A DNA stretch of 31,750 nucleotides from positions 12,254 through 44,003 of the forward strand of contig CAZUFC010000036.1 in assembly GCA_964619725.1 (NCBI GenBank). Direction: 5' to 3'. This document shows positions 5,943 to 31,750 of this stretch, in pieces. The notes below the pieces were generated by a model. The model saw nothing but the letters and a program-made list of their open reading frames with translations. It was not told the origin of the DNA and ran no database searches. Origin of the DNA: an uncultured bacterium. Its GTDB lineage: Bacteria; CSSED10-310; CAZUFC01. Within the stretch, counting starts at the first letter, position 1, and each line of letters opens with the position of its first letter. The position numbers were made by a program, and so were the translations under genes.

Positions 5943-6009
5943 ATAATTAGTGACTGTCCAGCATTAAATATTGAATCGTGATTCGAGTTTGCGGACAGTC
6001 ACTAATTAT
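5943..6009 (-). repeat. palindromic MITE/REP-like element, family A (best-preserved copy); may also act as a bidirectional terminator
   Basis: Perfect 17-bp inverted repeat ATAATTAGTGACTGTCC / GGACAGTCACTAATTAT. The reverse-complemented interior (AAACTCGAATCACGATTCAATATTTAATGCT) closely matches the copies at 10788 and 25773. Confidence 0.85.
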
Positions 6010-8375: not shown

Positions 8376-8806
8376 AAGAATCCTTATGATGTTTTCATTG
8401 ATTATTCGAAATGAGAAGCTTTTGTCCCAATCAACCAAAAAAGTGAAGAACCTGTATGCAGCGGCTGTTTCAAGCTGTCGCATACCGCTCTCCGGGTTAA
8501 CGCCGGAGCGCTTAGTCTCCATTATAAGAAGATTGAGATTTGAATCAATATCGTTAAGGATTTTTTTGCTTCAAAAGATGGAAAACGTTGTATCTATCTG
8601 GTTTTATTATGTTTTATTCTGACTGGAAAAGTAAAATCATGGGGATGATCGCTGTGAAATGACGGCATGCCGCGGATTTTGTTTTAAAGCCTGTTGGCGA
8701 TTCAATTTTGAGGACCTATAATATGTCTGAAAGAGTGGTTCCGATGTTTGAAAGCCGGATTTCGGAGCCGCGCTGGAGGACGTTAAGGCATGAGGATGAA
8801 GCGAAG

Positions 8807-9997
8807 ATGAAAAAAAGCGATGTTGAATTGTCTGTCGTTATAGTTAATTACAATACGGGTGATTTATTGGAAAATTGTCTTGTCAGTCTTACGAAAGAAC
8901 CTATATATAAAGATGAAATGGAAATTTTCGTGGTGGATAATGCATCATCCGACGGCAGCGACGAAGTTGAATCTCTGGCCCTGGAAAATTTGGAATTAAT
9001 CAGGAATAAAGAGAATGCCGGATTCGCACGCGCCAATAATCAGGCGCTCAAGTTATGTTCAGGACGCTTTATACTGCTCTTGAATCCGGATACGATCATC
9101 TTTCCCGGCGCTCTGACGAAAATGACCGCTTTTCTTGACTCAGAAAAGTCCATAGGGGCAGCCGGCGCCGTGACCTGGCTTGATGAAGAGAAAAGCCTGG
9201 AAGTCTGTACTTTAAAACTGCCGCGTCCGGGGTCCGCGTTCTGGGCTTTCACTCCTTTCAGAAGGCTGAAGAAGGCTGAAAAAATGCTGCAAAAATCCTG
9301 GAAGATCGATCATGAACTCTTTCTGAAAAAAAATGATGCCATAGAAACGGAAGGACTCGGAGGCGCCTGCTTCATGTTGAGACGGGAAGCGTTCCGGTCA
9401 ATAGGACTCCTGGATGAGCGGTTTTTCATGGGATATGAGGATACTGACTGGTCATATCGATTGAAAAAGGCCGGGTGGGGTACGGCTGTTCTGAGTTCCG
9501 CGGAAATTGTTCATTATTTCGGACAAAGCAAGAAAAAAAGAGCTTCTGTCGATTCCGATCTTTATCATTGGGACACGGGATTATTGCAATTCCTGAAAAA
9601 ATATTATCCGCCCTATCGTCTGGCGCCCTTTATTCTTTCCATGAAAACTGCGGATATTCTTGCAGGCATTGCCTCAAAAATAAAATACCCTCGACCCGAA
9701 AAACCGGCGATATTTCCTTCCGAACCGCAAAAAAAAATGGAATCGGTTGAAATTAAATGGCAAATTACGAACCCTGAAAATCCCCCGTACAAATACATCT
9801 TTGAACTTTCCAACAGCCCCGTGTTCTTTGATAAATTCGGCAGAGTGATCTCCGACTGGTCGATTCGTCTGCCGGCCACCCTGTTGAAAAGATTCTCCGC
9901 AGGATTGTATTACTGGCGAGTCTTCGGTTTGGCGGAAGACCTTACCGTATCCGAATCGCCTCTCGATTCAGGACTGTTAAATGTGGACGGTCGCTGA
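8807..9997 (+). CDS. glycosyltransferase family 2 (WbbL-like) with a C-terminal beta-sandwich-like extension
   Basis: LSVVIVNYN, VVDNASSDGS, NAGFARANNQ, LLLNPD, GLLDERFFMGYEDTDW, IVHYFGQS. Start at ATG 8807 (GAGGA upstream); the ORF track starts at 8708. Confidence 0.9.
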   Translation: MKKSDVELSVVIVNYNTGDLLENCLVSLTKEPIYKDEMEIFVVDNASSDGSDEVESLALENLELIRNKENAGFARANNQALKLCSGRFILLLNPDTIIFPGALTKMTAFLDSEKSIGAAGAVTWLDEEKSLEVCTLKLPRPGSAFWAFTPFRRLKKAEKMLQKSWKIDHELFLKKNDAIETEGLGGACFMLRREAFRSIGLLDERFFMGYEDTDWSYRLKKAGWGTAVLSSAEIVHYFGQSKKKRASVDSDLYHWDTGLLQFLKKYYPPYRLAPFILSMKTADILAGIASKIKYPRPEKPAIFPSEPQKKMESVEIKWQITNPENPPYKYIFELSNSPVFFDKFGRVISDWSIRLPATLLKRFSAGLYYWRVFGLAEDLTVSESPLDSGLLNVDGR

Positions 9998-10163
9998 CCC
10001 AAAAAACGGCTTCCGTCTCTCAACTCTAAACCTGCGATAAATCCTCTTCCAATAAAAAATGACTTTACTCGCCAAAGCCGCAGGAAATATCTTTGCTATC
10101 CCTGCTCACATTTTTATCGCAAATTTTTCAGTTTACAGTCAATAAACGGAAACCGTCAGCTTT

Positions 10164-10394
10164 TTAATCCATACTGTGAGGCAGCAATGCGATCTCTCTT
10201 GCTCGCTTTATGGCTCTAGCCAACTTGCGCTGATGAACCGCGCATGTCCCAGAGATTCTGCGGGGGATTATCTTTCCTCTCTCTGTGACGTAATTGGAAA
10301 GTATATCCACGTCTTTATAATCAATAAAATCCATATGATTTACGCAAAATCTGCAAACTTTACGTCTTCTAAAGCCCCGGCGTCTCCTCCTCAT
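10164..10394 (-). CDS. rpsR: 30S ribosomal protein S18 (Zn-binding C+ form)
   Basis: CRFC...[54 protein letters not shown]. Confidence 0.98.
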
Positions 10395-10461
10395 ACTCGT
10401 AACCTCTTTCGACTGTCTTAAAGTAACAATGAGTTATTCAGCAGTAATTTGATTTTTGCTG

Positions 10462-10692
10462 TTATTCAAGAATTTCAAGGATATAACGTTTTTTCCTTTT
10501 CATTCCAGCGTTGTTTAAAATCGTTCTGATGGCGGAGATGGTATTACCTTTTTTCCCGATGATCTTACCAATATCTTCTTCCGCTACCCTCAGTTCAAGC
10601 ACATTCGTGTGTTCGCCGCTTATTTCCGATACTTGCACACGATCCGGATTATCAACAATTTTCGTCGCTATCAATCTCACCAACTCTTGCAT
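10462..10692 (-). CDS. khpA: KH-domain RNA-binding protein KhpA (YlqC/UPF0109)
   Basis: [10 protein letters not shown]...[28 protein letters not shown] with a GxxG loop; SD AAGGAGG. Confidence 0.93.
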
Positions 10693-10787: not shown

Positions 10788-10848
10788 TAATTAGTGCCTG
10801 TCCATAAACTCGAATCTCGATTCAAAATTTAATGCTGGACAGCCACTT
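10788..10848 (+). repeat. palindromic MITE/REP-like element, family A
   Basis: TAATTAGTGCCTGTCC...GGACAGCCACTT ends; interior near-identical to 5943-6009 (reverse) and to 25773-25830. Confidence 0.85.
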
Positions 10849-10850
10849 GG

Positions 10851-10993
10851 GTTTTTGATCCATAAACGGGCGAATTTATCTTAAGTCAAGGAAGGCAAGG
10901 ATTTGCGAGTCAGGGGTATTGCTTATACGTTGACTGAGCAAATCCGCAGCCTGACGCACTATTAGGGGAAATTCGCCGTTTATGGACAAAAAC
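10851..10993. mobile_element. ~143-bp MITE-like element, family B, folding as one long imperfect hairpin
   Basis: Terminal inverted repeats GTTTTTGATCCATAAACGGGCGAATTT / AAATTCGCCGTTTATGGACAAAAAC; nested stems GTCA/TGAC, GGATTTGC/GCAAATCC, AGTCA/TGACT, GTAT/ATAC; no ORF. Confidence 0.65.
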
Positions 10994-11032: not shown

Positions 11033-14017
11033 TTAAAGCGTTTTGAGTATTCTCAACTGGATGACGGAGTTTCCTTCTCCGCCCTCTTCATTAGGAGCAT
11101 TGAACCCGTAGCCGAAATCGAACTGGACGAGGAAAGCCCAGGGACCCTGAAAGCCTCCGCCGAGACCAATGCCGAAACAATTCTTCCAATCCCCCGGATA
11201 TTCCTTGATATAAGCGTCATCAAGAAAGAGTTCAAATCTAAGGAAATCCGAAAATACCCATCCGAAGGAGCCTTTCAAAAGGCCGGCGGATTCAGCGCGT
11301 AAAGTATTGGCTCCGTAGCCGTGAATATAATTCTGGAAGAAACCGAATTGATGAGCGCTGAACCTGTCCAGATTTTTTCCTGAAAGAAACGCTCCTTCAA
11401 ATTTCAGACGCTTGAAATTCTTCATAAGGAAACTCCTGGTCACTTTGAGGCCATATTTATTGAACGAAGCGTCAGTATCGTTCAAGTCATCTTCCGGTCC
11501 CCATTCAGCCCAAGGCTCCCGGTTGTGCACCTCCGCCCAGGCTTTGGCCACGAATCCCCAACGATCGAATTCAATCGTCGCTCTGCCGATATGATCAATA
11601 TGATCCTCAGGCATTCGATAATTTTCTCCGGTATCTTCATTTTTTTGAACCGCCGAATAGGCAGCTTCATAGGTCAATTTCAATTTCCAGTCGACCTGGA
11701 AGGGCATCGCGATATTTATATTAGCCGTCAGAGGCAATATGTCCAGGGTTTCTTTTTCTCTGACTTCGCCTTCCACGAAGTATTTATCGGTCAAGGGAAC
11801 GGCGAAGGCAAGCACGTCCGAGCCGACTTCCAGTTTATTGTTCCACAGGGAGTGATTATACAGGTTCAAGGTTAACAGAGCGCCGGCGAACAGGAGATTC
11901 ATATGAGTTTTCGTATCGAAGAGGTTGAAATCGTAATAATTGAAACCAAGCAAGGGCAGGGGAAAATCCTGTGCCTGATCAGCGATAACGCCCGTCAACA
12001 GGAACTTGAGCGAATCCTCCGTATCATCCCTTAACACTCTTTTGCCTTTCTTTTTATCCAGATATCTCAATCCTTTCTCCGTATCCCTCATCATTCGGTG
12101 TGAACTCTCATATGCCATTGTTCTTTTTTCATTAAAAGGTTCGCTGTTGATTGCGTAATTGTGAAATTGGGTTTTTCTGTCCAGGACAGTATTTCTGCCT
12201 GCGGTAGTGAAAATCTGCTGTCCCGTTATCGTCGCCGGTAAAACATAGGTTTTATTCTGTGAGGTCGTGAGTCGCTTGAAACGTTCTGTTTGCCTGCTTG
12301 ATATCACGGGAGGTTCCAGGCCCAGTTGAACAGTTTTGAGTTTCAGCTTCCGATAATCATTGCGGCTGATCCATATTTTACCTTCATACAGCCTGGTCAA
12401 CGTTTCTGATACAGGTTTAAACGCAATGATCCAACAGGCCTCCCCGTCAATATCCTCCTCACCCTCCAGTGAATATTCATAATGTTCGTCCAAAGTTATA
12501 TCCAGCGGAACAGCCTGAACTTTTTCCGGCTGCAGCATGGGCAAATCCAGGCAACGGGCCCCTCTCCATCTCACACCGTCCAGGTAAAATTCTTTCTGTT
12601 CCCAATCAGCGCCCTGTCCTCTTTCATAAAAAAAAGAACCGTCTATCGCCAATTCATAACTCATTTCCAGCGCCGGTATCTTTAAGTAAAGACTCACCGT
12701 CCCATCGCAGAAATAATGCTCCAGACTCGCCTCCTGCAATGTTTCCACCGCCTGGTAACGCGTTATTATCTCCTCAGCCGTCACACGTTTTTCTCCCGCC
12801 ACTTCTACCGTGAAAGCCACCTTTTCCTCGGAAACGGCTGAGTAAGGATCGTAACGTAAAATCAGCGGAGTTCTCGAAACCGGCACATTGCGAATGAAAG
12901 CAGCGTTTAATTTATCGTCTCTGTGAAAAAACAAATCCGTCATGGTTATGTCGTTCGCCAGGTCGTATATCACAGGCGCTTCTACGTCCGACGTATCGAT
13001 AAGGCAGCGCGGAACAGTCGAATATGAACCGCTTTCATCATAATAAACCGCCAGATAATTCAACTTCTTCAGATCAAAAAATGTTTCAAATCTTACATGC
13101 TTCAATCGATTACCCTTTTCATCCAGAAAATAAAAACGCTCCTCCGGAGGTTCCTGGGGAACAATCTGCGGAGAAAAAAAACGGTTCAACCTGTCCAGAA
13201 AATCAATTCTTTCGGTCAGTCCTTCTTCTTCGATGCTCTCAGTAAATCTTTCCAGTAAAACATTAGAGCGTCGCTCATTCGCATGAAGGAACTTCTTGTA
13301 AAATTCCGTTTTTGTTTCGAAAATGAAATCCGCCAGGACCAGGAAATCTTCCGCCGCTTCTCCAGGAATACGCTCAAAGGATTCCCCTGCCTCTCCCGAT
13401 AAGTAAATCCCTTCATAGTAATTCTTGAACTCCGGCCCCATATTCATCACTCTTTCATAATGATCCTGGTCTATGTCTGCCGCGATGATTGCTTTTTCAT
13501 TGAAACCCTTCAGCAATACTGATGTTTTCTTCAAGAAAAAAAGGGCATCCCGGAGACTCAGTTCATTCGGAAAGGGAACCACATATCCGCCGGGCAAGTC
13601 GCCCCAGTATTCGACCAGCCTCTCCAGTCCATCCAGCCATGCCGATGCGTATTCTTCAACGGAAGCGCCGTTGAGATATTCCTTTCGGGTTATTTTGAAC
13701 ATCTGAAGTATCGAAAGAATCTCCCTTTCTTCCAAAAAGCGCCGGAAATCCCGGTTCATAAATGCTTCAGGTTTTCCCTCCCAAACGACAAATACCGGTT
13801 TTGACTCTTCCGACCCTTTATTGAAAATCCTATCTCTATAACTCTTTTCGAAGTATTTCGAATATTCGATAAAATTCTCTGCTTCAGCCGTAAAACCAAT
13901 ATAAGTCGTAAGATTGAGATTTATGGCGGCATTTTGGGAGTCGTCTGCCGCATCAGCAATGCCTGCAAGCGACGAAAAAAACAGCAATCCAATGCAAAAT
14001 TCCCGGAAACATCTCAT
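11033..14017 (-). CDS. large exported protein, probably outer-membrane: N-terminal alpha/beta domain, LolA/MucB-like central domain, C-terminal beta-barrel
   Basis: Signal peptide ending IADA; YEYSLEGEEDIDGEACWIIAFKP...YEGKIWIS..DY motif resembles LolA-like sorting domains; last ~330 aa show alternating aromatic/Gly strands (FGIGLGGGFQGPWAFLVQFDFGYGF). Confidence 0.65.
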   Translation of the reverse strand: MRCFREFCIGLLFFSSLAGIADAADDSQNAAINLNLTTYIGFTAEAENFIEYSKYFEKSYRDRIFNKGSEESKPVFVVWEGKPEAFMNRDFRRFLEEREILSILQMFKITRKEYLNGASVEEYASAWLDGLERLVEYWGDLPGGYVVPFPNELSLRDALFFLKKTSVLLKGFNEKAIIAADIDQDHYERVMNMGPEFKNYYEGIYLSGEAGESFERIPGEAAEDFLVLADFIFETKTEFYKKFLHANERRSNVLLERFTESIEEEGLTERIDFLDRLNRFFSPQIVPQEPPEERFYFLDEKGNRLKHVRFETFFDLKKLNYLAVYYDESGSYSTVPRCLIDTSDVEAPVIYDLANDITMTDLFFHRDDKLNAAFIRNVPVSRTPLILRYDPYSAVSEEKVAFTVEVAGEKRVTAEEIITRYQAVETLQEASLEHYFCDGTVSLYLKIPALEMSYELAIDGSFFYERGQGADWEQKEFYLDGVRWRGARCLDLPMLQPEKVQAVPLDITLDEHYEYSLEGEEDIDGEACWIIAFKPVSETLTRLYEGKIWISRNDYRKLKLKTVQLGLEPPVISSRQTERFKRLTTSQNKTYVLPATITGQQIFTTAGRNTVLDRKTQFHNYAINSEPFNEKRTMAYESSHRMMRDTEKGLRYLDKKKGKRVLRDDTEDSLKFLLTGVIADQAQDFPLPLLGFNYYDFNLFDTKTHMNLLFAGALLTLNLYNHSLWNNKLEVGSDVLAFAVPLTDKYFVEGEVREKETLDILPLTANINIAMPFQVDWKLKLTYEAAYSAVQKNEDTGENYRMPEDHIDHIGRATIEFDRWGFVAKAWAEVHNREPWAEWGPEDDLNDTDASFNKYGLKVTRSFLMKNFKRLKFEGAFLSGKNLDRFSAHQFGFFQNYIHGYGANTLRAESAGLLKGSFGWVFSDFLRFELFLDDAYIKEYPGDWKNCFGIGLGGGFQGPWAFLVQFDFGYGFNAPNEEGGEGNSVIQLRILKTL

Positions 14018-19454: not shown

Positions 19455-21809
19455 TCAATCAGCCAGAATGTCGAATTCGATTGAGTCCAGTTCTCCGATA
19501 AGCATCGCAGCTTCCATATCAACCATAGCGCCGTGAAAATACAGATCAGGCAAATCTTCAACCAGAGCGGGCATGCCGAAAGTTTGGAGTATAAGCAGCT
19601 CCATGGTCCCCGTGCCCAGGTCGATCTCTCTGTAGTCTATCATGCCCGTGGCGCCGTATGACGTCCAGCTTGGCCAGAAGAACAACTCTCCGTAAACATC
19701 CAGAATCACGAACAAAGGCACGTCCTCCATCGGGTCGCCCGGATTGCTTATGACGGCATTGACCCAGCAGTCGTCCCCTTCATAATAATGATTTGACGGC
19801 ATAATGAGCTGAACTCCCAATTCCAGCGTATCCTCCACCAGATTGTATCCCTTGCTCAAACTCGGATTAAAATTGTTTCTCGTATTGAATTCCTGTTCTC
19901 CCCCGGAATCGACCACCTTTTCTAATATCGTGTAAATCCTGTATTTGCCCTCCTCGGATACCTGCAACGTATTCCAGTAAACGGCTCTCTCGAAAACCGC
20001 TCCCCCGAAAGCTTCCACGGCAGGCAATTTTTCCTCATATATCAATGTCGAAGAAGAATATTGAGGATCATCCAGGATATTGTTCGGCGTTTCTTCAAAA
20101 TATACTTTCAATTTGGCTCCCGCTGCATCGCTTTCACCGAAATTCCTCACCTTGATGTTTATTTTAACTTTTTCTCCGATAAGGGCAGTCTGCGGAGGAA
20201 AAAACGCAATGTCCTCCCGGAATATGGTCAGATCGGGTTGAACGGTCCTGAATCTGCCGTTGATGCGGGCATCAGCCGAAGTGACGACGCCGGCATCCTG
20301 ATACCAGTCTCTGACGGCTCTCCAGCACTCAATTTCCGTTTCCAGGGGATTCTGAATTTCAATTGGATAGAATTCAGAAAGAGGATTATTATCCAGGATA
20401 AAATATTCAGCCCAGTTGACTCCAATTTTATACCATTCATCATCCTGCAGCTCTTCCCCGTTGATTAAAAAACTGATGAATGATTCCGATCCCGCATTGG
20501 GATCGATAATGATCTCCATCCCTGAATTATTGAAATAGTAACCCATCAGCGTCGATAAACCGAATACCGTTTTTAAATTCGTCCCCTGCACTTCACAGGA
20601 CCACAACTTCAGATTCTCGTCCGTATAGGGATCATATCCGTAAGGAAAAGACTCATAGGCGTTACTTGAATTGATGATTCCGACATCGATATTCTCGGCC
20701 ATAAAATTATCCGTGACCAGGACCGCATCAGCGTCATAACCGTTTGAATTCAATGATTCAAGAAAAATATCGGCATACAGATTTCCCATATTCGATTCAG
20801 TGTTGCGCACGAATAAATCAATATAACTCTCGCATATCGCATCATCAAACGGATAATCGTATTTCTCATTGATCGCTTCAATCTGCTCTTCAACCAAAGC
20901 CTTGACGTCCGCATCTTCTTCGACTTCCGGCAAAGTGAAGATCAACTGAGAATCATCAAGCAGCGTTTCGCCTGTATTTGAATTATAAGTCAAATCGACT
21001 CGCCCCAGGCACCGGTAAAACTCCCAGGCCTGGACTACCCAGGTAATTTCTCCCAATGGGTTCTCCACTTCTACAGCTTCTTCCAGAACAGTATGAGAAT
21101 GACCGCCTACGATCAGGTCTATTCCTGCAACGTCCGAAGCCAAATCCATATCGGAATATTCGCCGCTGCTGTTGAATCCCAGATGACTCAGACAAATTAT
21201 GATGTCGACGCCCTCCCCTTCCAGAAAAGAGACCATCTCTTCCGCTTTTTCTTCCGGGTTCGTCACTTCAACCGGTTCAAAAAACAGCGTGTAAAGAAAA
21301 GTCTCGGTAGTCAGCCCGAAAAGTCCGACCTTGAAGTCAGCGAAATTAAATATGACATATTCCTCAACCAGTGAATCCAGATTGCCGTAACCGTGAAAAT
21401 CCACATTGCTCAATAAAACAGGATAGGTCGGAGATTCAGAAGCAAGTTTGTCCTCCAGAAAGTCGGGACGATACAGGTAATCATGGTTGCCTATGACCAC
21501 CGCATCATAATCAAGATATTCTTCATTCCTTAAACGCAGTTCCAGGGACCCCGACCCTGCGATATTATGAAAAAAGGTCCTCTCGCTCCAATCTCCCGCA
21601 TCCAGCAGGAGTACGTTTTCGGAAAGCATCCGCTCCTGCTCTATCAGGGTCGCCATGCGAGCCGCCCCGCCCCAGGCCGTTCCTTCTTCAGCCGCAGCCA
21701 GTCTCGTATGAGTATCATTGGTGTGGAGAATCGTCAGGGAATAATTTTCAGCCAGCGCCGCGCCGGCCAGGCAGAATATGGTTATAAACATTACTATCGC
21801 TTGCTTCAT
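19455..21809 (-). CDS. secreted 5'-nucleotidase/UDP-sugar hydrolase family metallophosphoesterase with CARDB-like Ig domain and conserved C-terminal domain
   Basis: ILHTNDTH, LLLDAGD, GNHD, LSHLG, IVGGHSH, ESNMGNLYAD; PDL...VKINIKVRNFGESDA...EFNTRNN (CARDB-like). Start at ATG 21809 (GGAGG SD); the ORF track starts at 21842. Confidence 0.9.
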   Translation of the reverse strand: MKQAIVMFITIFCLAGAALAENYSLTILHTNDTHTRLAAAEEGTAWGGAARMATLIEQERMLSENVLLLDAGDWSERTFFHNIAGSGSLELRLRNEEYLDYDAVVIGNHDYLYRPDFLEDKLASESPTYPVLLSNVDFHGYGNLDSLVEEYVIFNFADFKVGLFGLTTETFLYTLFFEPVEVTNPEEKAEEMVSFLEGEGVDIIICLSHLGFNSSGEYSDMDLASDVAGIDLIVGGHSHTVLEEAVEVENPLGEITWVVQAWEFYRCLGRVDLTYNSNTGETLLDDSQLIFTLPEVEEDADVKALVEEQIEAINEKYDYPFDDAICESYIDLFVRNTESNMGNLYADIFLESLNSNGYDADAVLVTDNFMAENIDVGIINSSNAYESFPYGYDPYTDENLKLWSCEVQGTNLKTVFGLSTLMGYYFNNSGMEIIIDPNAGSESFISFLINGEELQDDEWYKIGVNWAEYFILDNNPLSEFYPIEIQNPLETEIECWRAVRDWYQDAGVVTSADARINGRFRTVQPDLTIFREDIAFFPPQTALIGEKVKINIKVRNFGESDAAGAKLKVYFEETPNNILDDPQYSSSTLIYEEKLPAVEAFGGAVFERAVYWNTLQVSEEGKYRIYTILEKVVDSGGEQEFNTRNNFNPSLSKGYNLVEDTLELGVQLIMPSNHYYEGDDCWVNAVISNPGDPMEDVPLFVILDVYGELFFWPSWTSYGATGMIDYREIDLGTGTMELLILQTFGMPALVEDLPDLYFHGAMVDMEAAMLIGELDSIEFDILAD

Positions 21810-22036
21810 GATTCCGTTAACCTCCTGCTGATCATTCAACAAATGGGAATGTTATCCTCTGCAGATGCTACTAAATTCAAACCGGAAAATCAACAGTTTC
21901 GGAATGCCGATGCTCCGGTTACACTTCTTTCAGTGAGGACCGGCCCAACATACAACTGAGCGCGACAGATTTGATCCGGTTTTCGGGATCGTTCCGCCCG
22001 CTGTTAGACTTTTTTCAAAACGTTTGACGGTTTGTT

Positions 22037-24380: not shown

Positions 24381-24387
24381 CCATCCG

Positions 24388-24535
24388 GCGCCGCTCTATA
24401 AACCCCTTTCTATGTTCAAATTTTTTAGCTGGACAGGCGCAGCGGATTCTGATCCATCACGCGGCACGTAACGATTGTTGCTTGAAGCAAGCAAATCAAA
24501 GATTTGTGAAGGAGGAGCCCCTGTCATACAGGGTC
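24388..24535 (+). repeat. degenerate family-A + family-B composite remnant
   Basis: TTCAAATTTTTTAGCTGGACAGGCGCAGCGGATTCTGATCCATCACG aligns with the A/B junction at 10821-10868; followed by stems CAAATC/GATTTG and CCCTGT/ACAGGG. Confidence 0.5.
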
Positions 24536-24776: not shown

Positions 24777-25742
24777 TTGGAAAATAAAATGAATGCTGAT
24801 GAAAAAACGATAAATTTCGGTTTTGTCTTTCCTGGTCAGGGCTCTCAAAAAGTAGGCATGAGCAAAGAACTGTGGGAAAGCTTCGATATCTGTTCAAAAA
24901 CTTTCGAAGAAGCGGACGACACACTGGGATTCTCTCTCAGTCGTCTGTGCTTTGAGGGTCCGGAAGACAAATTGATGCTGACGGAATATACTCAACCCGC
25001 CCTCCTGACGGCCAGCATAGCGGCCTATCGCGCTCTGGATATTGTTCCCGCTGCCGCTGCCGGTCACAGCTTAGGCGAATACAGCGCCCTGACTGCAGCA
25101 GGCGTCATTTCCTTCAGCGATGCCTTGAAAATAGTGCGTTTGAGAGGACGTTACATGCAGGAAGCCGTCAATCCGGGCGCCGGCGCCATGGCCGCTTTAC
25201 TGGGCGCTGAGCAGGATGAAGTCGAAAAACGCTTGCTTGATTACAACAGTCATAACCAGGGAAGTTGCGTGGAACTGGCGAACATCAATTCGCCCAAACA
25301 ACTCGTTATTTCCGGCTATCACGATGACGTTTTTGCAATGGCCGACGAAATTAAAGCCCTCAGAACCGTTATGCTGCCCGTCAGCGCACCCTTTCACTGT
25401 TCCCTGATGAAACCCGCTGAAGAAAAACTGGCCGCCCAAATCGAAAAAATACCATTTAGCGATCCCCTATTTCCCGTATTCTCAAACGTCGATGCCCAAC
25501 CCGTAACTACCGCCGAACAAGCCCGGAAAAACCTCATACTTCAAGTTACTCGACCGGTGAAATGGAAAGATTTAATCGAAAAAATGATCCGGGAATTCAA
25601 CATTAACAAGTTGCTTGAAGTCGGTCCGGGCAATGTGCTTTCAGGACTCCAGAGACAAATCGACCGTTCTGTTCCGATAAAAGCTTTTTCCATGCCTGAT
25701 CAGTTGACGGGAATACGCCATTTTCTGGAAACATGGTCCTGA
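24777..25742 (+). CDS. fabD: malonyl-CoA:ACP transacylase
   Basis: FVFPGQGSQKVGM, TQPALL, catalytic GHSLGEYSAL, RGRYMQ, LPVSAPFHCSLM, EVGPGNVLSGL. TTG start with AAAGGAG SD (alternative ATG at 24789). Confidence 0.97.
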   Translation: MENKMNADEKTINFGFVFPGQGSQKVGMSKELWESFDICSKTFEEADDTLGFSLSRLCFEGPEDKLMLTEYTQPALLTASIAAYRALDIVPAAAAGHSLGEYSALTAAGVISFSDALKIVRLRGRYMQEAVNPGAGAMAALLGAEQDEVEKRLLDYNSHNQGSCVELANINSPKQLVISGYHDDVFAMADEIKALRTVMLPVSAPFHCSLMKPAEEKLAAQIEKIPFSDPLFPVFSNVDAQPVTTAEQARKNLILQVTRPVKWKDLIEKMIREFNINKLLEVGPGNVLSGLQRQIDRSVPIKAFSMPDQLTGIRHFLETWS

Positions 25743-25772
25743 TATAAGGGTCTCCCACCTTATGAATACGAG

Positions 25773-25850
25773 TTAGTGTATGTCCACAAACTCGAAGCCC
25801 GATTCAAAATTTAATGCTGGACAGCCACTTGGGTTTTTGATCCATAAACG
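25773..25850 (+). repeat. family-A element plus left end of family B
   Basis: 25800-25850 is identical over 51 bp to 10818-10868. Confidence 0.9.
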
Positions 25851-26091
25851 AGTTAGAATTGCGCCTGCTCCTCTTATCTTCCCTCCCGACGACGACCGGG
25901 CGAGCATAGGGTGACTTTGGACAAACGGAAATTGAGCGAATAGAGACGAAAAAACTTGTATCAGAGGCAGCATTTGGAGTAATTTGTAATGTCTGTTCTC
26001 TCCGGGAGCAGAGGAAGGAATGAATATCCGGAGAATATTTCCGTCGCTATGAATCGGAAAAAATTCAAATGTGCTTTACAGAGGAACCGAG

Positions 26092-27888
26092 ATGATCAAA
26101 TTCAGATATGTCACAGTCGCAGTCGTGATGATAATGAGCATTTTCCTGTCGTGGGCTGTGCTGGGCGAAATGAAGCAACTGGAAGGAGCTTCGCCGAAGG
26201 AAGCAATCAATGTAATACTCATATCCCTGGATACGCTGAGGGCCGATTATGTAGGAATATACGGGAACCCGGAGCCGCTGACGCCGTTTTTGGATGAGCT
26301 TTTGTCAGAAAACGTATGGTTCAGGGACTGTATCGTTCAGGCCCCCTGGACGCTTGCTTCCCACATGAGTTTATTAACATCTCAATACCCCAACGTACAT
26401 AACGTCAACCTGGCGGAAGCCAAGCTTGCGGAAGGCAAAAAAACGCTGGCTCATTATCTGAGCGAATACGGATATTATACGAAAGGAATTATCAGCAATC
26501 CTTTTTTGAGTCATGGATTCGGTTTTCACCGGGGATTCGACGCCTACAATGACGCGGGCAAAAAACACGGTTATCAGAGCACGCAACAATTTGTTCAGTG
26601 GGTGGAAGGCGCGCACAATAAAAATCAGCCGTTTTTTCTTTTTCTTCATTACAATGATCCGCACATGCCGTACCAGGCGCCGACGCCGTTCTATAATCTT
26701 TTCGACAGAGAATACGAAGGATCGGTGTCCGGGTCGAGAAACGACATAGTGAAGTATGTGCGACGGCCCATAGAGGAACGGGACCTTCAGCACATCAGGA
26801 ATCTTTACGGCGATGAGGTCCGGTATCTCGACAACCAGCTCTACCAGGTTTTCTGCATATTAAAAGAACTGGGCCTGTATGAAGACAGCCTGATAATAAT
26901 GACTGCGGATCACGGAGAAGAATTCAAGGAACACGGAAAGCTGGAACACAATCAGACCCTTTACGAAGAATTGATACGATCGCCCCTTGTCATTAAATTT
27001 CCTGAAAAAATGAACATCCGGCCGCGCATGATATCACGCCAGGTCAAAAACATAGACCTCCTGCCCACGATATTGGACGTCGTCGGAGCTCCCATACCGG
27101 AAGATTCCGTGCAGGGACAATCCCTTCTTCCGTTAATACTTGAGGAACCCGGAACGGAAAATTTCAATCACATGATTTTCTCCGAAAGCGCCAACACGCA
27201 CAAAGTATCGATTCGCAGCGAAAATTGGAAATATATTTACGATCGACGATATGACCAGGAAGAATTATACAATCTGGAAACGGACCCGGAAGAAAGACAA
27301 AACCTTATTTCATCCGAACCTGAACTGGCCGCGGAACTTTCCGAACTGGTAAATAATTACATGATGCAGGCTCAGAGCGGCTGGCATCTGAGGACGCGTT
27401 ATCCTTTTAACATACGCGGAGTTCTGAGGACGACGGGACGTTTTACGCCTGTAAAGGCTTTTACGATTGAAGAAGATGATTCATTGGAAGTTTCCGGGGA
27501 CCAGAAGGAGATTTTTTTCAATTTCAAAAGTGAAAAAAGAGCCGACACTCTGGACGGAATCGATTTCAATCTTCTGCCGTCCGATGCTGCACTTGAACTG
27601 GAAATCCTCGACGCCGGGGACCTTTCGATATCATCCGCGCTTTCCAGAATCTATATCGGCAGCCGGTACGCAAAACCGTCGAAGCATCCCGTTCCATTGA
27701 CTGGCGAACGTCTTACCGCAGACCCTCTAGTCGATATAACCGATCTGATAATCATTACGAAAAGCCGAAGGGGAAAAATTCCCGGTCTTTACATCTGGAA
27801 ATTGCGCGACAGGGAGCAGAAAATTCAATGGGCCGACATAGATCAAAATACTCGCCAACGACTGGAAAGCCTCGGTTATTTCCGGTGA
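26092..27888 (+). CDS. membrane-anchored or exported sulfatase-like hydrolase/transferase (alkaline-phosphatase superfamily, Thr at the nucleophile position)
   Basis: NVILISLDTLRAD, TPFLD, QAPWTLASHMSLLTS (no CxPxR), FLHYNDPHMPY, TADHGEEF, LYEELIRSPL, ELYNLETDPEE; N-terminal hydrophobic segment; ends RQRLESLGYFR. Start at ATG 26092 (GAGGA SD). Confidence 0.9.
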   Translation: MIKFRYVTVAVVMIMSIFLSWAVLGEMKQLEGASPKEAINVILISLDTLRADYVGIYGNPEPLTPFLDELLSENVWFRDCIVQAPWTLASHMSLLTSQYPNVHNVNLAEAKLAEGKKTLAHYLSEYGYYTKGIISNPFLSHGFGFHRGFDAYNDAGKKHGYQSTQQFVQWVEGAHNKNQPFFLFLHYNDPHMPYQAPTPFYNLFDREYEGSVSGSRNDIVKYVRRPIEERDLQHIRNLYGDEVRYLDNQLYQVFCILKELGLYEDSLIIMTADHGEEFKEHGKLEHNQTLYEELIRSPLVIKFPEKMNIRPRMISRQVKNIDLLPTILDVVGAPIPEDSVQGQSLLPLILEEPGTENFNHMIFSESANTHKVSIRSENWKYIYDRRYDQEELYNLETDPEERQNLISSEPELAAELSELVNNYMMQAQSGWHLRTRYPFNIRGVLRTTGRFTPVKAFTIEEDDSLEVSGDQKEIFFNFKSEKRADTLDGIDFNLLPSDAALELEILDAGDLSISSALSRIYIGSRYAKPSKHPVPLTGERLTADPLVDITDLIIITKSRRGKIPGLYIWKLRDREQKIQWADIDQNTRQRLESLGYFR

Positions 27889-27925
27889 TTTCATCAGCAA
27901 ACTGTAAAAGAAATAACGATTAGGG

Positions 27926-27954
27926 TTGACAGGAACGCTTTCCGGGAGTAAAAG
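27926..27954 (+). promoter_or_regulatory. possible sigma70 promoter for sat
   Basis: TTGACA-17 bp-TAAAAG in the 217-bp gap before sat. Confidence 0.45.
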
Positions 27955-28105
27955 AATCTTCCTTGCTCATCGTAAGATTGATGCAGGGTATTTTGATCAA
28001 TTAATCGAGATGTCGTCGAGGTTCGATTTCACCTGGAAAGAGAAGATTCACGGATCGAATCGCGACGATGATAATTTTAATTTTTCGTATTTTGGGGAGG
28101 TTGTT

Positions 28106-29257
28106 ATGCTGATCAGGCCTCATGGAGGAAAGCTCGTTAATCGGATGGTTACGGCGAGAGAGAAAGAAGAATTAATGAATCAATGCAGCGATTTGGTTCA
28201 AATTTCTTTGTCGGATGACAAATTGAAAGAAGTCAGGAACATCGCTCACGGCGTTTTCAGTCCCCTGGAAGGTTTTATGACCCGTTTGGACCTTGATCCC
28301 GTCGTCACCGACAGCAGGCTCTCCGACAATAATTATTGGACGGTGCCGATACTGCTGGCCGTCGACCGGAATCTGGTCGAAAAACTGGAAATGAACTCAA
28401 AAGCGGCGCTGACCGATTCTGAAGGAAAAATCTACGGGGCATTGACCATTGAAGATATATTTGAATACGACAAGAAGAAAATGGCCAAAAGCGTGTTCGG
28501 AACGGAAGATGCCGAACATCCCGGAGTAGCTAAAATTTATGGTGAAGGCGATTATTACATCGGCGGACCTATCGACCTGTTTGAAGCGCCTCCCACGCCT
28601 TATGACGACAATTACCTCTCCCCCAGGGAAACCCGTTACCTGTTCAACCGCCTGGGCTTCAGAACAGTAGCCGCCTTTCAGACGAGAAATCCTCCTCACA
28701 GAGCACACGAATACCTCCAAAAATGCGCTCTTGAAGTCTGCGACGGTTTGTTCATTAACCCTGTCATCGGAAAGAAAAAAGTGGGCGATTTTACCGACCA
28801 TCTCATTCTTAAAACTTACAGAAAACTGATCGAAGCGTTTTATCCGAAAGATAGGGCCGTTCTCAGCATACTTCCCTGGGAGATGAGATACGCGGGTCCC
28901 AAGGAAGCTATTTTCCACGGCATCGTCAGAAAGAATTTCGGCTGCTCGCATCACATTATCGGTCGCGATCACGCGGGAGTCGGCGATTATTACGGCACAT
29001 TCGACGCGCAGGAGATTTTCTCGGAGTTTCCCGGACTTGAAATCGAACCCCTGAAATTCGAACACTCCTTTTATTGCGTAAAGTGCGGAAATATGGGAAC
29101 GTGCAAAACCTGCCCCCATCCCAATGAGGACCACGTTAATCCCAGCGGAACGAAAATCAGAGGCGTCGTTACCGAAGGCGCTGAAGTGTCGCCCAAGATA
29201 ATGCGTCCGGAAATAGCCGGAATTATCGCTTCAGACGATGACCCATTTGTGAAATGA
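28106..29257 (+). CDS. sat: sulfate adenylyltransferase (ATP sulfurylase, Sat type)
   Basis: PHGGKLVNR, FSPLEGFM, HPGV, FQTRNPPHRAHEY, MRYAGPKEA, GRDHAGVG, Zn-site CVKC...CPH, SGTKIR. Start at ATG 28106 (GGGGAGGT SD); the ORF track start at 27926 is too long. Confidence 0.98.
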   Translation: MLIRPHGGKLVNRMVTAREKEELMNQCSDLVQISLSDDKLKEVRNIAHGVFSPLEGFMTRLDLDPVVTDSRLSDNNYWTVPILLAVDRNLVEKLEMNSKAALTDSEGKIYGALTIEDIFEYDKKKMAKSVFGTEDAEHPGVAKIYGEGDYYIGGPIDLFEAPPTPYDDNYLSPRETRYLFNRLGFRTVAAFQTRNPPHRAHEYLQKCALEVCDGLFINPVIGKKKVGDFTDHLILKTYRKLIEAFYPKDRAVLSILPWEMRYAGPKEAIFHGIVRKNFGCSHHIIGRDHAGVGDYYGTFDAQEIFSEFPGLEIEPLKFEHSFYCVKCGNMGTCKTCPHPNEDHVNPSGTKIRGVVTEGAEVSPKIMRPEIAGIIASDDDPFVK

Positions 29258-29399
29258 GACGGATGTATGCCGGATACTAAAATGCGGAAAACAATTCACA
29301 ATGAATGATTCACGGAGCTCTTTCAGAACCATCAGGTTAAAAAACTTCAAAAACAGCCGCTGAATCGTCGAACGCATTGTCGCACCGGAATAAACAGCC

Positions 29400-30797
29400 A
29401 TGACCAGAACTCAAAAAAAACTCGTAGTAATAGGACTCGACTGCGCTTCCCCCGAACTGATCTTTGAAAAATGGATCGATGACCTGCCCAATTTCCGCAG
29501 ATTGATATCCTCAGCCGTATACGGTCGCCTGAAAAGCACTATCCCTCCCATCACTATTCCCGCCTGGGCATCCATGCTGACGGGCATGTCGCCCGGACAC
29601 CTGGGCGTATACGGCTTCCGGAACCGCCGATCACATAAATACGGCGATGAATCCTTCGCCGTATCAAGCTCCGTCAGATACCCCATGATCTGGGAACTGC
29701 TGTCCAATTTCGGAAAATCTTCCGTCGTGATCGGCGTTCCCCAGACTTATCCGCCCAAACCATTCAACGGCAAACTCGTTTCAGGTCTGCTTACGCCGGG
29801 AAATCAGGCGCCTTATACGCATCCCCTCAGCCTTAAACAGGAACTTGAAAATAAATTCGGCGACATTATCTTCGATATCGATCACTTTCGTGAGCTGGAC
29901 AAACGAAAACTGGCCGAAAGAATACGTGAAATGTCCGATCAGCGTTTCGCCCTGGCTGATTACCTGATGCAAAACAGTAAATGGGATTTCTCGATCTTCG
30001 TCGATATGGGTCCAGACAGACTCCACCACGGATTCTGGAAATACATGGATGAAACTCATCCCAAACATAACCCGGACTCGCCTTTCGCAGACATCATTAA
30101 GGATTACTACAAACACCTGGACACACTGATCGGCAATCTCACCGCTCAACTCGATCCCGATACCGCCGTTATTATCGTATCAGACCACGGAGCCCAGGCC
30201 ATGCACGGCGGAGTCTGCCTCAATGAATGGCTGAGGAAAAAAGGTCTTCTGACCCTTAAACAGGAACCTGAAAAACCTTCCCCGCTCAATTTCGATATGA
30301 TCGACTGGAAAAATACGAAAGCCTGGGGTTACGGCGGATACTGCGGTCGGATTTGTCTGAACGTTGTAAATCGAGAACCTGAAGGCACTGTTGAGCAGCA
30401 GGACTTCGAAAAAATGAAAAATTCCATCGCTGAAAACCTGATCTCTATTAAAAGACCGGACGGCTCTCCTATGAACAACAGGATTTTCGATCCGCGAAAA
30501 ATTTACTCGCCCGCCAACGGAATACCCCCGGACCTCATCGTCTACTTCGATGACCTGAAATGGCGCTCCGTCGGCAGCGTCGGGACAGACTCAATCTATA
30601 CCTTCGAAAACGACCTGGGCCCCGACGACGCAAACCACTCCGAATACGGCATCTATATACTCCATTCGCCTCATTTCAATAAATCAGTATCGCACGAATC
30701 AAACCTGTTGAATATTACGCCGACTATTCTTCAGTACTTCAATCTGCCCTCGCCGGACAGACTTATAGGTCAACCTATAACGGCAGATTTCAGATAA
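29400..30797 (+). CDS. cytoplasmic alkaline-phosphatase-superfamily protein (NPP/type I phosphodiesterase-like, COG3379-type)
   Basis: VVIGLDCA, LKSTIPPITIPAWASMLTG..PG..GVYGF, DRLHHGFW, IIVSDHG, DDANHSEYGI, ITPTIL; no signal peptide. Confidence 0.9.
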   Translation: MTRTQKKLVVIGLDCASPELIFEKWIDDLPNFRRLISSAVYGRLKSTIPPITIPAWASMLTGMSPGHLGVYGFRNRRSHKYGDESFAVSSSVRYPMIWELLSNFGKSSVVIGVPQTYPPKPFNGKLVSGLLTPGNQAPYTHPLSLKQELENKFGDIIFDIDHFRELDKRKLAERIREMSDQRFALADYLMQNSKWDFSIFVDMGPDRLHHGFWKYMDETHPKHNPDSPFADIIKDYYKHLDTLIGNLTAQLDPDTAVIIVSDHGAQAMHGGVCLNEWLRKKGLLTLKQEPEKPSPLNFDMIDWKNTKAWGYGGYCGRICLNVVNREPEGTVEQQDFEKMKNSIAENLISIKRPDGSPMNNRIFDPRKIYSPANGIPPDLIVYFDDLKWRSVGSVGTDSIYTFENDLGPDDANHSEYGIYILHSPHFNKSVSHESNLLNITPTILQYFNLPSPDRLIGQPITADFR

Positions 30798-30877
30798 AAT
30801 ATTATGAACGTAAATCTCATCACTGAAAATATTCTTCATTTTCAACAAAAAACACACCCTTGAAGGAGGTTGTCATC

Positions 30878-31492
30878 GTGGAACACCCCGGATTCACTCT
30901 TTGGTTCACAGGATTACCCTGCTCAGGAAAAACCACCCTCGCCGATCACGTCGCTGATCGACTGAAAAAGCTGGGAATGAATATTGAACGCCTGGACGGA
31001 GATATCGTCCGTAAAGGTCTTACCAGGGACCTCGGATTCTCAAAAGAAGACAGAGACATGAACATCGAACGAGTCACCTTCGTGGCCAAACTGCTCAGCA
31101 GGAACAATGTGGGCGTTCTGCTTTCCTTCGTCTCCCCTTACATTAAAGCCAGGGACAACGCCAGAAAAGAATGTACCAATTTTATCGAAGTATTCGTAAA
31201 AGTTTCCCTGGAAGAAGCGGAAAAACGTGACGTCAAAGGTATGTATAAAAAAGCCAGGCAGGGAATCATAAAGGATTTCACGGGCGTCGACGACCCCTAT
31301 GAAGAACCGCCTCGTGCCGAAATCATCGTGGACACCGACGTCGAATCCCTCGAGGAAAGCTCGGATAAAGTCGTTGATAAACTGAAAGAATTAGGTTTCA
31401 TACCGACTGAAGAAGCAGACGTCTTTTCTAAAGAAGAAGAAGAAACAATTAAAGCAAGACTCGAAAACCTGGGATACCTGGATCGGAACTGA
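30878..31492 (+). CDS. cysC: adenylyl-sulfate (APS) kinase
   Basis: WFTGLPCSGKTT, LDGDIVR, DLGFSKEDRDMNIER, RDVKGMY, FTGVDDPYEEP; GTG start at 30878 with AAGGAGGT SD; extra C-terminal tail. Confidence 0.98.
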   Translation: MEHPGFTLWFTGLPCSGKTTLADHVADRLKKLGMNIERLDGDIVRKGLTRDLGFSKEDRDMNIERVTFVAKLLSRNNVGVLLSFVSPYIKARDNARKECTNFIEVFVKVSLEEAEKRDVKGMYKKARQGIIKDFTGVDDPYEEPPRAEIIVDTDVESLEESSDKVVDKLKELGFIPTEEADVFSKEEEETIKARLENLGYLDRN

Positions 31493-31535
31493 ATCAGTAA
31501 GCGCCTGTTCATATTGTCGCGTCCAGACAGAAATT

Positions 31536-31750
31536 TCAGAGCCGGCCAGGAACTGCTGTTTCGCAAGGAGCATCTGGAATTAAAAGGTGTTCGAACTTCA
31601 CATCCGTAAGCGATTCAAGGCCCGGTTCCAATGTAATCGGCTGAAGGATATCTCCATAGTTCGGACGCACAGCCTGGGAGCGGGGGATTGTTTTTCCTTG
31701 AGGTTTTTTGAGCGATTGCTGGATTCTCGTCAAACATTTCACAATTACCC
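31536..31750 (-). CDS. possible 3' end of a CDS entering from the right edge, unknown function
   Basis: Minus-strand frame is open from the window end to the stop at 31536 and converges on cysC; no recognisable motif. Confidence 0.35.
   Translation of the reverse strand, partial: VIVKCLTRIQQSLKKPQGKTIPRSQAVRPNYGDILQPITLEPGLESLTDVKFEHLLIPDAPCETAVPGRL

Follow-up and report, generated by a model that had tools for sequence, protein, structure and literature searches.

Why should a bacterium keep the genes for making 3′-phosphoadenosine 5′-phosphosulfate (PAPS) beside genes for two enzymes of the alkaline phosphatase (AP) superfamily, and on what is the PAPS spent? The question is raised by a stretch of 31,750 nucleotides (the window), which corresponds to positions 12254–44003 of contig C36 in the draft genome (G000) of an uncultured bacterium. 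Here four co-oriented genes on the plus strand encode a sulfatase-like protein (26092–27888), the ATP sulfurylase Sat (28107–29257), an enzyme resembling nucleotide pyrophosphatases/phosphodiesterases (NPPs) that we call X (29400–30797), and the adenosine 5′-phosphosulfate (APS) kinase CysC (30860–31492). An initial annotation of the window had named these four genes, which Pfam and NCBIfam assignments bear out, and had proposed that they form a non-canonical sulfation pathway. We find that sat, X and cysC are one conserved module in organisms without PAPS reduction, and that a C-terminal tail bearing a tyrosine travels with X. In a predicted complex, the tail of CysC lies in the active site of X, and X may pass on sulfate from PAPS, with the tail tyrosine as the most likely acceptor.

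A conserved sat–X–cysC module

In a scan of one genome per species, 570 relatives of X were confirmed and the best 80 loci analyzed, neighbors being detected by tblastn with the window's proteins within 8 kb of X. Beside X, sat and/or cysC was found in 51 of these 80 loci (both genes in 34, sat only in 10 and cysC only in seven), and every match lies on the strand of X. The order sat–X–cysC occurs 19 times, X–cysC–sat 11 times and sat–cysC–X four times, and the loci span Chloroflexota, Acidobacteriota, Verrucomicrobiota, Zixibacteria, Bathyarchaeota and Methanomethylicota. In eight Anaerolineae-type loci (L019, L020, L021, L023, L026, L027, L031 and L036) a single reading frame of about 860 amino acids encodes a Sat–X fusion. 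Several of the 29 loci with neither gene are cut contigs, and an APS kinase is encoded elsewhere in 27 of the 29 genomes that lack the adjacency. An even sample of 121 Chloroflexota genomes gave a similar picture, CysC being present in all 24 genomes positive for the X family versus 42 of the 97 negative ones (Fisher p 5.5e-8). Three of the loci (L049, L063 and L071) and one genome (G107) are from unpublished genomes; their share in any count is one to three units at most, and the conclusions do not depend on them.

The suggestion that sat and cysC would keep company with both AP-superfamily genes thus held for one of them. The association with X, a COG3379 protein, extends across phyla and is far beyond chance, whereas a Thr-type sulfatase-like gene lies near X in 6 of 80 loci, which is about the chance level for a large paralogue family. 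The conserved unit is therefore sat–X–cysC and not the four genes.

A Pfam scan of neighboring genes covered 12 loci, with 109 of the 202 open reading frames (ORFs) that had been picked for 15 loci; it left out L032, L055 and L079, the outer ORFs, in most loci the ORF bearing X, the fused sat–X frame of L020, and sat of L075 and L095. Glycan or envelope contexts were seen in L076 (Bathyarchaeota; AglB/STT3 and a flippase), L022 (an exosortase/exopolysaccharide cluster), and L025 and L038 (GT2 and GT4 glycosyltransferases). Other neighbors are further COG3379 paralogues and, in L018, a sulfate symporter, while a canonical sulfotransferase was present in 1 of the 12 scanned loci. TauE-family permeases follow cysC in L076 and L081, and in L038 (Glassbacteria) a homologue of the RNA 2′-phosphotransferase Tpt1/KptA lies directly after cysC (9991–10638). 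Two archaeal loci have a gene of the DHH family interposed between sat and X (L025:2642–3691 and L081:1183–2181). Because the DHH family includes an archaeal phosphatase for adenosine 3′,5′-bisphosphate (PAP), as the available part of PMC10322725 has it, X is unlikely to act as a PAP phosphatase alone in these loci.

PAPS in the module genomes serves sulfation

PAPS may be reduced for assimilation or spent on sulfation. The PAPS reductase CysH (TIGR00434) was above its cut-off in none of 39 module genomes, which gave three weak matches, versus 8 of 14 control genomes; PF01507, matched in all 14 control genomes, had no match in the genome of the window (90.9% complete). Assimilatory sulfate reduction was rejected on this basis, and the PAPS of module genomes therefore serves sulfation, not assimilation. 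In keeping with the initial annotation, no cysH, sulfite reductase, sulfate transporter, P-loop sulfotransferase or sulfatase-maturing enzyme was found among the 16 large ORFs of the window that were scanned.

Which enzyme then performs the sulfation is less simple. PF13469 is matched in 26 of 40 module genomes; 3 of the 14 without it have PF00685 at E ≤ 0.01, such that in 11 of 40 no canonical sulfotransferase of these two families was found, one of these records being titled a complete genome (L055). PF03567 was sought in 14 genomes without a match, a result that is uninformative since no control genome was positive either. In the window's own genome, canonical P-loop sulfotransferases are encoded on contigs C62, C37, C116 and C89. 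The possibility that the use of PAPS is explained by genes elsewhere, which the initial annotation had named as a ground for abandoning its proposal, is thus partly realized for this genome. That proposal of a non-canonical sulfation pathway gains from the link of X to sat and cysC, from the lack of detectable CysH and from the published haloarchaeal genetics described below, and loses by the canonical sulfotransferases elsewhere and by the unconserved position of the sulfatase-like gene.

The identities of the two PAPS-making enzymes are straightforward. Sat (383 amino acids) has both the PUA-like and the ATP-sulfurylase domains (PF14306, 1.5e-50; PF01747, 1.4e-87) and scores 507 bits against a curated cut-off of 387 for NF003166. 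Its ORF is open from TTG 27926, and we place the start instead at ATG 28107, after a GGGGAGG site, which leaves a gap of 218 nucleotides behind the sulfatase-like gene. CysC is an APS kinase (PF01583, 1.5e-57; TIGR00455, 212.5 bits against a cut-off of 138.7), with an additional weak match to PF08823 (E 0.0043). Since the family models stop near residue 181 of 210, the remainder of CysC is a C-terminal extension.

X has the fold of nucleotide pyrophosphatases/phosphodiesterases

X is a protein of 465 amino acids without a signal peptide, and is matched by PF01663 over residues 8–408 (3.3e-45). Although a PDB sequence search returned nothing at E ≤ 0.01, its AlphaFold2 model (predicted local distance difference test score, pLDDT, 89.9) has an NPP-like fold, with ENPP1, ENPP3, ENPP5, ENPP6 and the Xanthomonas enzyme (Xac NPP) as top Foldseek matches (probability 1.00, E about 1e-15 to 1e-13) at 12–16% identity. 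ENPP1–7 and Xanthomonas NPP are thus the closest structures to the model. Among 20 orthologues 94 of the 465 residues are invariant, including T52, D14, D206, H210, D262, H263 and H413. By correspondence with NPP residues, T52, which stands in a T-x-P context, is the putative nucleophile and the other six are putative ligands of two metals; the invariant Asp/His set is consistent with two metal sites. Unlike those enzymes, X is cytoplasmic, possesses extra conserved Arg-rich elements and is embedded in a PAPS operon.

The family is large: 7967 of 8000 scored candidates matched. The best 120 relatives share 47–54% identity with X, and those among them with a named source come from Brocadiaceae, Acidobacteriota, Chloroflexi, Nitrospirota and Asgard archaea. 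Identity stays at 45–50% across phyla of both bacteria and archaea.

A C-terminal tyrosine tail accompanies X

The tail was first noticed as the …EEEEIRxRLExLGY ends of a few X orthologues, and its general form is aromatic-S/T-x-EEE-x-I/V-x-x-R-L-x-x-L-G-Y. Two proteins of the window share this ending (EEE..RLxxLGY in CysC): CysC, whose tail comprises residues 182–210 (…FSKEEEETIKARLENLGYLDRN; 31403–31489), and the sulfatase-like protein (…ADIDQNTRQRLESLGYFR; 27832–27885), which matches the tail profile with E 2.1e-6. Among the 3323 ORFs of 100 or more amino acids in the 80 X loci, 60 end in L..LGY plus 0–3 residues, and 49 loci have one or more such ORF. The tail is carried by 31 of 40 CysC proteins next to X, 13 of 32 COG3379 paralogues, 4 of 5 sulfatase-like proteins, 3 of 80 X proteins and none of 44 Sat proteins.

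The core of CysC already ends in …KLEELGY(L/I), where archaeal CysC proteins stop; bacterial CysC proteins beside X add a linker and a second RLxxLGYL, and none of 18 CysC proteins from X-negative Chloroflexota genomes has this extension. Within the Chloroflexota sample the tail profile was positive in 15 of 121 genomes, 14 of which have an X-family gene (p 3.5e-11), and CysC carries the tail in 12 of 24 X-positive versus 1 of 42 X-negative genomes having CysC (p 5.7e-6); with the exception of the figure for CysC, this co-occurrence is partly trivial because some tails sit on X paralogues. The first aromatic position of the tail varies between Tyr and Phe, while the Tyr of LGY is never replaced. 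In the window's genome, ORF ends of the type L..LG? have Tyr after LG 55 times and every other residue one to four times.

Those 55 ORFs (of 17,915 of at least 100 amino acids, ending in L..LGY plus 0–6 residues) comprise 39 sulfatase-like proteins, 11 COG3379-like proteins, three CysC and two others, an assembly duplicate being counted. Most have N-terminal signal segments, many of lipoprotein type, and a few are cytoplasmic. Tail-bearing AP-superfamily proteins have thus undergone a very large expansion here.

Searched against 1.84 billion representatives, a 36-residue tail profile found 871 proteins at E ≤ 0.001, with the match nearly always at the extreme C-terminus. Many are CysC fragments, and many are Met-starting ORFs of 36–47 amino acids in which unrelated N-termini precede the tail. 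A metagenome scan with stand-alone tail peptides yielded 50 loci, the peptides near X being 41–45 amino acids long. In 27 of the 50, all from one lineage (L117–L166), the peptide gene lies between genes for a CobW/COG0523-type GTPase and a UDP-glucose dehydrogenase (ugd), and cobW is directly preceded by X in 16 of the 18 loci that have at least 450 nucleotides of sequence on that side (the exceptions are L122 and L132). The fullest operon (L134:2600–8503) reads flippase, X, cobW, peptide, ugd, orf85 (85 amino acids), sulfatase-like gene and COG3379 paralogue; its CobW/COG0523-type GTPase is a possible metal chaperone for X.

Some long proteins (P0241, P0259, P0345 and P0376) with 7–20 internal LQxRLKELGYF repeats also score with the tail profile. 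The repeats of P0241 and P0259 look like peptidoglycan-binding domains, the first helix of which the tail resembles; the weak PF08823 match of CysC belongs to this resemblance. We treat this domain as a look-alike, as the repeats are internal and belong to a different, larger domain.

Predicted docking of the CysC tail in X

One complex was modeled, X with CysC, each partner being entered as its own alignment, together with three control runs. The X–CysC runs scored 0.86, 0.86 and 0.80 and all three controls 0.00; the mark was reached by 116 of 157 solved complexes versus 2 of 215 mismatched pairs, counts that are only a rough guide here because the alignments were our own. At least 77% of contacts are common to the runs, with a partner pLDDT of at least 82. 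In the predicted complex CysC contacts X through residues 182–210 only, and these lie in the catalytic cleft. Y206 of CysC is placed against I51, T52, G313 and Y314 of X, at the metal site; L204 is against D159, F163, R207 and H210, L201 against residue 73, and R200 against D159. Of the 38 interface residues of X, 18 are invariant, versus 94 of 465 overall. A tail docked in this manner would account for the conservation of X, whose ligand would itself be a conserved peptide, and for the fact that the tail Tyr is never Phe.

Possible roles of X

The reading that we put forward, tentatively and with reservations, is that the module makes PAPS for sulfation and that X consumes this PAPS and moves its sulfate to the tail Tyr; we infer both that the transferred group is sulfate and that Tyr is its acceptor. 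X would take the sulfuryl group from PAPS, probably by way of a sulfo-Thr52 intermediate, and would put it on the invariant Tyr of acceptor tails, which would be those of CysC, of COG3379 paralogues, of Thr-type sulfatase-like proteins such as that at 26092–27888, and of the free peptides of 41–45 amino acids. X would be physically coupled to the makers of PAPS, being fused to Sat in some lineages and holding the tail of CysC in its cleft. Sulfate monoesters, like the phosphodiesters favored by NPP sites, are monoanionic, and a promiscuous sulfatase activity of NPP is known.

A number of observations weigh against this reading. NPP enzymes naturally attack phosphorus rather than sulfur. The docking expresses the confidence of a model, and basic clefts may attract tails that are flexible and acidic. 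A peptide found in an active site may just as well serve as a tether, plug or regulator, and in the AlphaFold2 model of the window's sulfatase-like protein the tail is not confidently docked in that protein's own active site. No tail ORF was found within 8 kb of X in 31 of 80 loci, and 7 of the 14 top-scoring X genomes of the Chloroflexota sample have no tail match at E ≤ 0.001. Most tail-bearing proteins of the window's genome look exported, and X, being cytoplasmic, could reach these only before their export. Lastly, the canonical sulfotransferases of the window's genome, and those of 26 of the 40 module genomes, could consume the PAPS.

The last point is also among those that favor a different, and in our view doubtful, role for X, that of an accessory hydrolase of the PAPS pathway (a pyrophosphatase, a PAP 3′-phosphatase or an APS/PAPS phosphosulfate hydrolase), with the real sulfotransferases elsewhere. 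The NPP fold, with its Foldseek matches to ENPP1/3/5/6 and Xanthomonas NPP, and the invariance of Thr and the putative two-metal ligand set are as a hydrolase would have them, the high conservation fits a nucleotide substrate, and the Sat–X fusions recall the fusions of sulfate-activating enzymes with pyrophosphatase in some eukaryotes. However, NPP sites favor diesters, whereas pyrophosphate and the 3′-phosphate of PAP are an anhydride and a monoester; to hydrolyze APS or PAPS would be a futile step; two archaeal loci have a DHH gene along with X; and 11 of 40 genomes yielded no canonical sulfotransferase. A hydrolase would also leave unexplained the docking of the tail and its co-occurrence with X. 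In a further alternative, the tail would plug AP-superfamily clefts as a pseudo-substrate or act as their assembly motif, or its Tyr would gain or lose AMP instead of sulfate, the link to sat and cysC being regulatory. NPP enzymes do form nucleotidyl-Thr intermediates, many of the AP-superfamily paralogues with tails are exported and may never encounter the cytoplasmic X, and three X orthologues bear the tail themselves. We nevertheless regard this as improbable, since it leaves unaccounted for both the strict pairing with PAPS synthesis (CysC in 24 of 24 versus 42 of 97 genomes) and the Sat fusions, and is not helped by the model of the sulfatase-like protein, in which that protein's own tail is not confidently docked. 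Least credible by far is ordinary assimilatory sulfate activation with two unrelated hydrolases alongside by chance: sat and cysC are common housekeeping genes and the sulfatase-like gene has no conserved place beside X (6 of 80), but CysH was not found in the window's genome, nor above cut-off in 39 module genomes, and the order sat–X–cysC recurs across phyla and domains, with Sat–X fusions besides.

It is also possible, although we think it unlikely, that X is a PAPS-dependent sulfotransferase for sugars, acting on a lipid- or nucleotide-linked glycan unit in the manner proposed for the haloarchaeal proteins Agl7, Agl30 and Agl31, in which case the CysC tail would tether the source of PAPS or serve regulation. 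X does occur in glycan contexts (L076, L022, L025 and L038) and in a metagenome operon with a flippase and UDP-glucose dehydrogenase, and haloarchaeal AP-superfamily proteins are needed for sugar sulfation, which their heterologous expression confers (available parts of PMC3892788 and PMC11980604). Against this, an identity of 45–50% across phyla and 94 invariant residues are more in keeping with a single conserved substrate than with glycans, which vary; a tether occupying the catalytic cleft would prevent catalysis; and neither the invariant Tyr nor the free-standing tail peptides would be explained; moreover, the haloarchaeal enzymes are described in those parts as sulfatase-like and not as PF01663-type, a distinction drawn from descriptions.

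The word carrier, which the initial annotation used for a possible sulfate acceptor, may be apt given the predicted docking. In a speculative and rather improbable extension, LGY tails would be sulfuryl-carrier arms: X would load the sulfate of PAPS onto Tyr, the resulting aryl sulfate would be a portable, activated donor, and exported Thr-type enzymes would pass it to envelope glycans. The donor would be borne on CysC, on the free peptides of 41–45 amino acids or as a built-in part of exported Thr-type AP-superfamily enzymes, which would use the sulfate from their own tail or from that of a neighbor. If true, carrier arms would make it possible to sulfate polymers beyond the cytoplasm in spite of the lack of PAPS there.

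The sulfatase-like protein

The first gene of the cluster starts at ATG 26092 and encodes 598 amino acids, consisting of a signal/anchor segment, a PF00884 core, a beta-rich C-terminal domain and the LGY tail. It has a sulfatase fold (PF00884, 3e-44; SGSH_C, 1.3e-19), and 70 solved sulfatase-family chains match it at E ≤ 1e-5. The PF00884 core, the SGSH_C region and the metal-site residues are shared with type I sulfatases. The active-site motif, in contrast, is not: where those enzymes have C/S-x-P-x-R, this protein has TLASH, beginning at T87, which aligns with S-T-P-A-R of chain 7oz8 such that T87 occupies the position of the Ser precursor of formylglycine. With that motif replaced, formylglycine cannot form, and a true type I formylglycine sulfatase is therefore rejected. 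T87 is invariant in 24 homologues, and D47, D273, H274 and T87 are invariant in alignment A2; of these homologues 23 of 24 end in L..LGY plus 1–3 residues. Together with T52 in 20 orthologues of X, this bears out what had been noticed at the outset, Thr at the nucleophile position of the sulfatase-like protein and at the putative one of X.

LtaS, EptA/MCR and OpgB use a Thr nucleophile on the sulfatase fold for transferase chemistry via a covalent Thr intermediate, and the window's protein has in common with them Thr on this fold. An LtaS/EptA-type multi-pass membrane protein is not what the sequence encodes, however: LtaS and EptA possess a five-helix membrane domain, whereas the window's protein has a single N-terminal hydrophobic segment (residues 2–31), and its NCBIfam matches are weak and partial (LtaS, 39.8 bits against 970; EptA, 20 bits against 561), so membership in these families was rejected. 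The mean pLDDT of its AlphaFold2 model is 82.5, the tail helix (585–593) being of low confidence. Its closest relative in the genome is on another contig. We view the protein as a member of a set of about 38 Thr-type paralogues that bear the tail and are probably exported; its tie to X is the tail rather than conserved adjacency.

Relation to known sulfation systems

No published description of X, its sat–cysC setting or the tail was found among the open-access papers and bioRxiv preprints listed, subscription journals lying outside the scope of the search. What is new here is the tail on CysC beside X, with its invariant Tyr modeled against Thr52 and the metal site of X.

Genetic support for haloarchaeal "sulfatase-like" sulfotransferases appeared in print in 2013 and 2025. 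As set out in the available parts of these reports, Agl30 (VNG1056C) and Agl31 (VNG1057C) of Halobacterium salinarum and Agl7 (HVO_2046) of Haloferax volcanii are sulfatase-like AP-superfamily proteins required for N-glycan sulfation (PMC3892788, PMC11980604). They are annotated as sulfatases yet act in the addition of sulfate, not its removal, in glycan-biosynthesis contexts (PMC11980604; PMC3892788, Table S1), and one of them is described as membrane-associated via an N-terminal segment and one as soluble, which resembles the window's pair. By description, however, the three are sulfatase- or arylsulfatase-like, whereas X is PF01663/NPP-like, and the available parts of the two accounts report no link to sat or cysC, no donor and no tail, the word PAPS being absent from that of PMC11980604. 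A term search of the available text of a 2024 review on polysaccharide sulfotransferases gave no mention of AP-superfamily sulfotransferases (PMC11625862).

If the reading we prefer holds, X would catalyze the same reaction as tyrosylprotein sulfotransferase (TPST) and bacterial RaxST, namely the sulfation of Tyr in an acidic peptide with PAPS as donor. TPST and RaxST are direct-transfer enzymes of the P-loop sulfotransferase fold, whereas neither AP-superfamily protein of the window matches PF00685 or PF13469, the families of the canonical PAPS sulfotransferases. Arylsulfate sulfotransferase (ASST), which performs a ping-pong transfer of sulfuryl groups via a covalent sulfo-enzyme with aryl sulfate donors outside the cytoplasm, is unlike X in its beta-propeller fold and its His nucleophile, and PAPS is not its donor. 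RaxST modifies its peptide in the cytoplasm before export (available parts of PMC6637879 and PMC4646787).

Sulfation of the tail Tyr by X, if true, would represent a second, structurally unrelated kind of protein tyrosine sulfotransferase and a new post-translational modification of prokaryotes, with substrates numbering dozens in each genome. It would also explain thousands of "sulfatase-like hydrolase/transferase" genes without the formylglycine motif. Many bacteria and archaea have sulfated glycans and lipids without, to our knowledge, any known sulfotransferase. Because its family sits inside a PAPS operon of organisms unable to reduce PAPS, X is a prime candidate for the missing sulfation step.

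Other features of the window and genome

The host draft genome comprises 9.17 Mb in 344 contigs at 47% G+C, with 90.9% completeness and 6.5% contamination. The window ends, at 31750, at a scaffold gap of N directly after cysC, so the genes downstream of cysC are not readable; a partial convergent ORF on the minus strand (31536–31748) runs off into this gap. Positions 3666–24629 of contig C117 are an assembly duplicate of 23040–44003 of C36 (21 kb, 99.995% identity). A second locus, on contig C230 (L016:1533–5066), contains a Na+/sulfate symporter adjoining a second, tail-bearing cysC, and a B12-binding radical SAM enzyme.

The repeat that had been seen at the left border of the cluster is indeed present, as an interspersed intergenic element of 78 nucleotides (25773–25850) with 94% identity to 10791–10868. 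Further copies are inverted at 5949–6008 and degenerate at 24385–24462 (63%). With its internal dyad symmetry (GTCCA…TGGAC) the element is of the repetitive extragenic palindromic (REP) or miniature inverted-repeat transposable element (MITE) type, and one copy lies just 5′ of the sulfatase-like gene. A promoter and terminator scan of 25700–31750 gave sites no more numerous than in shuffled sequence and is therefore uninformative on operon structure. Unrelated genes on the minus strand farther upstream encode a Ser/Thr kinase with HDOD and GAF domains (6009–8522), a protein of 994 amino acids with a weak LolA-like match alone (11033–14017), and a metallophosphatase/5′-nucleotidase with a CARDB domain (19455–21842).

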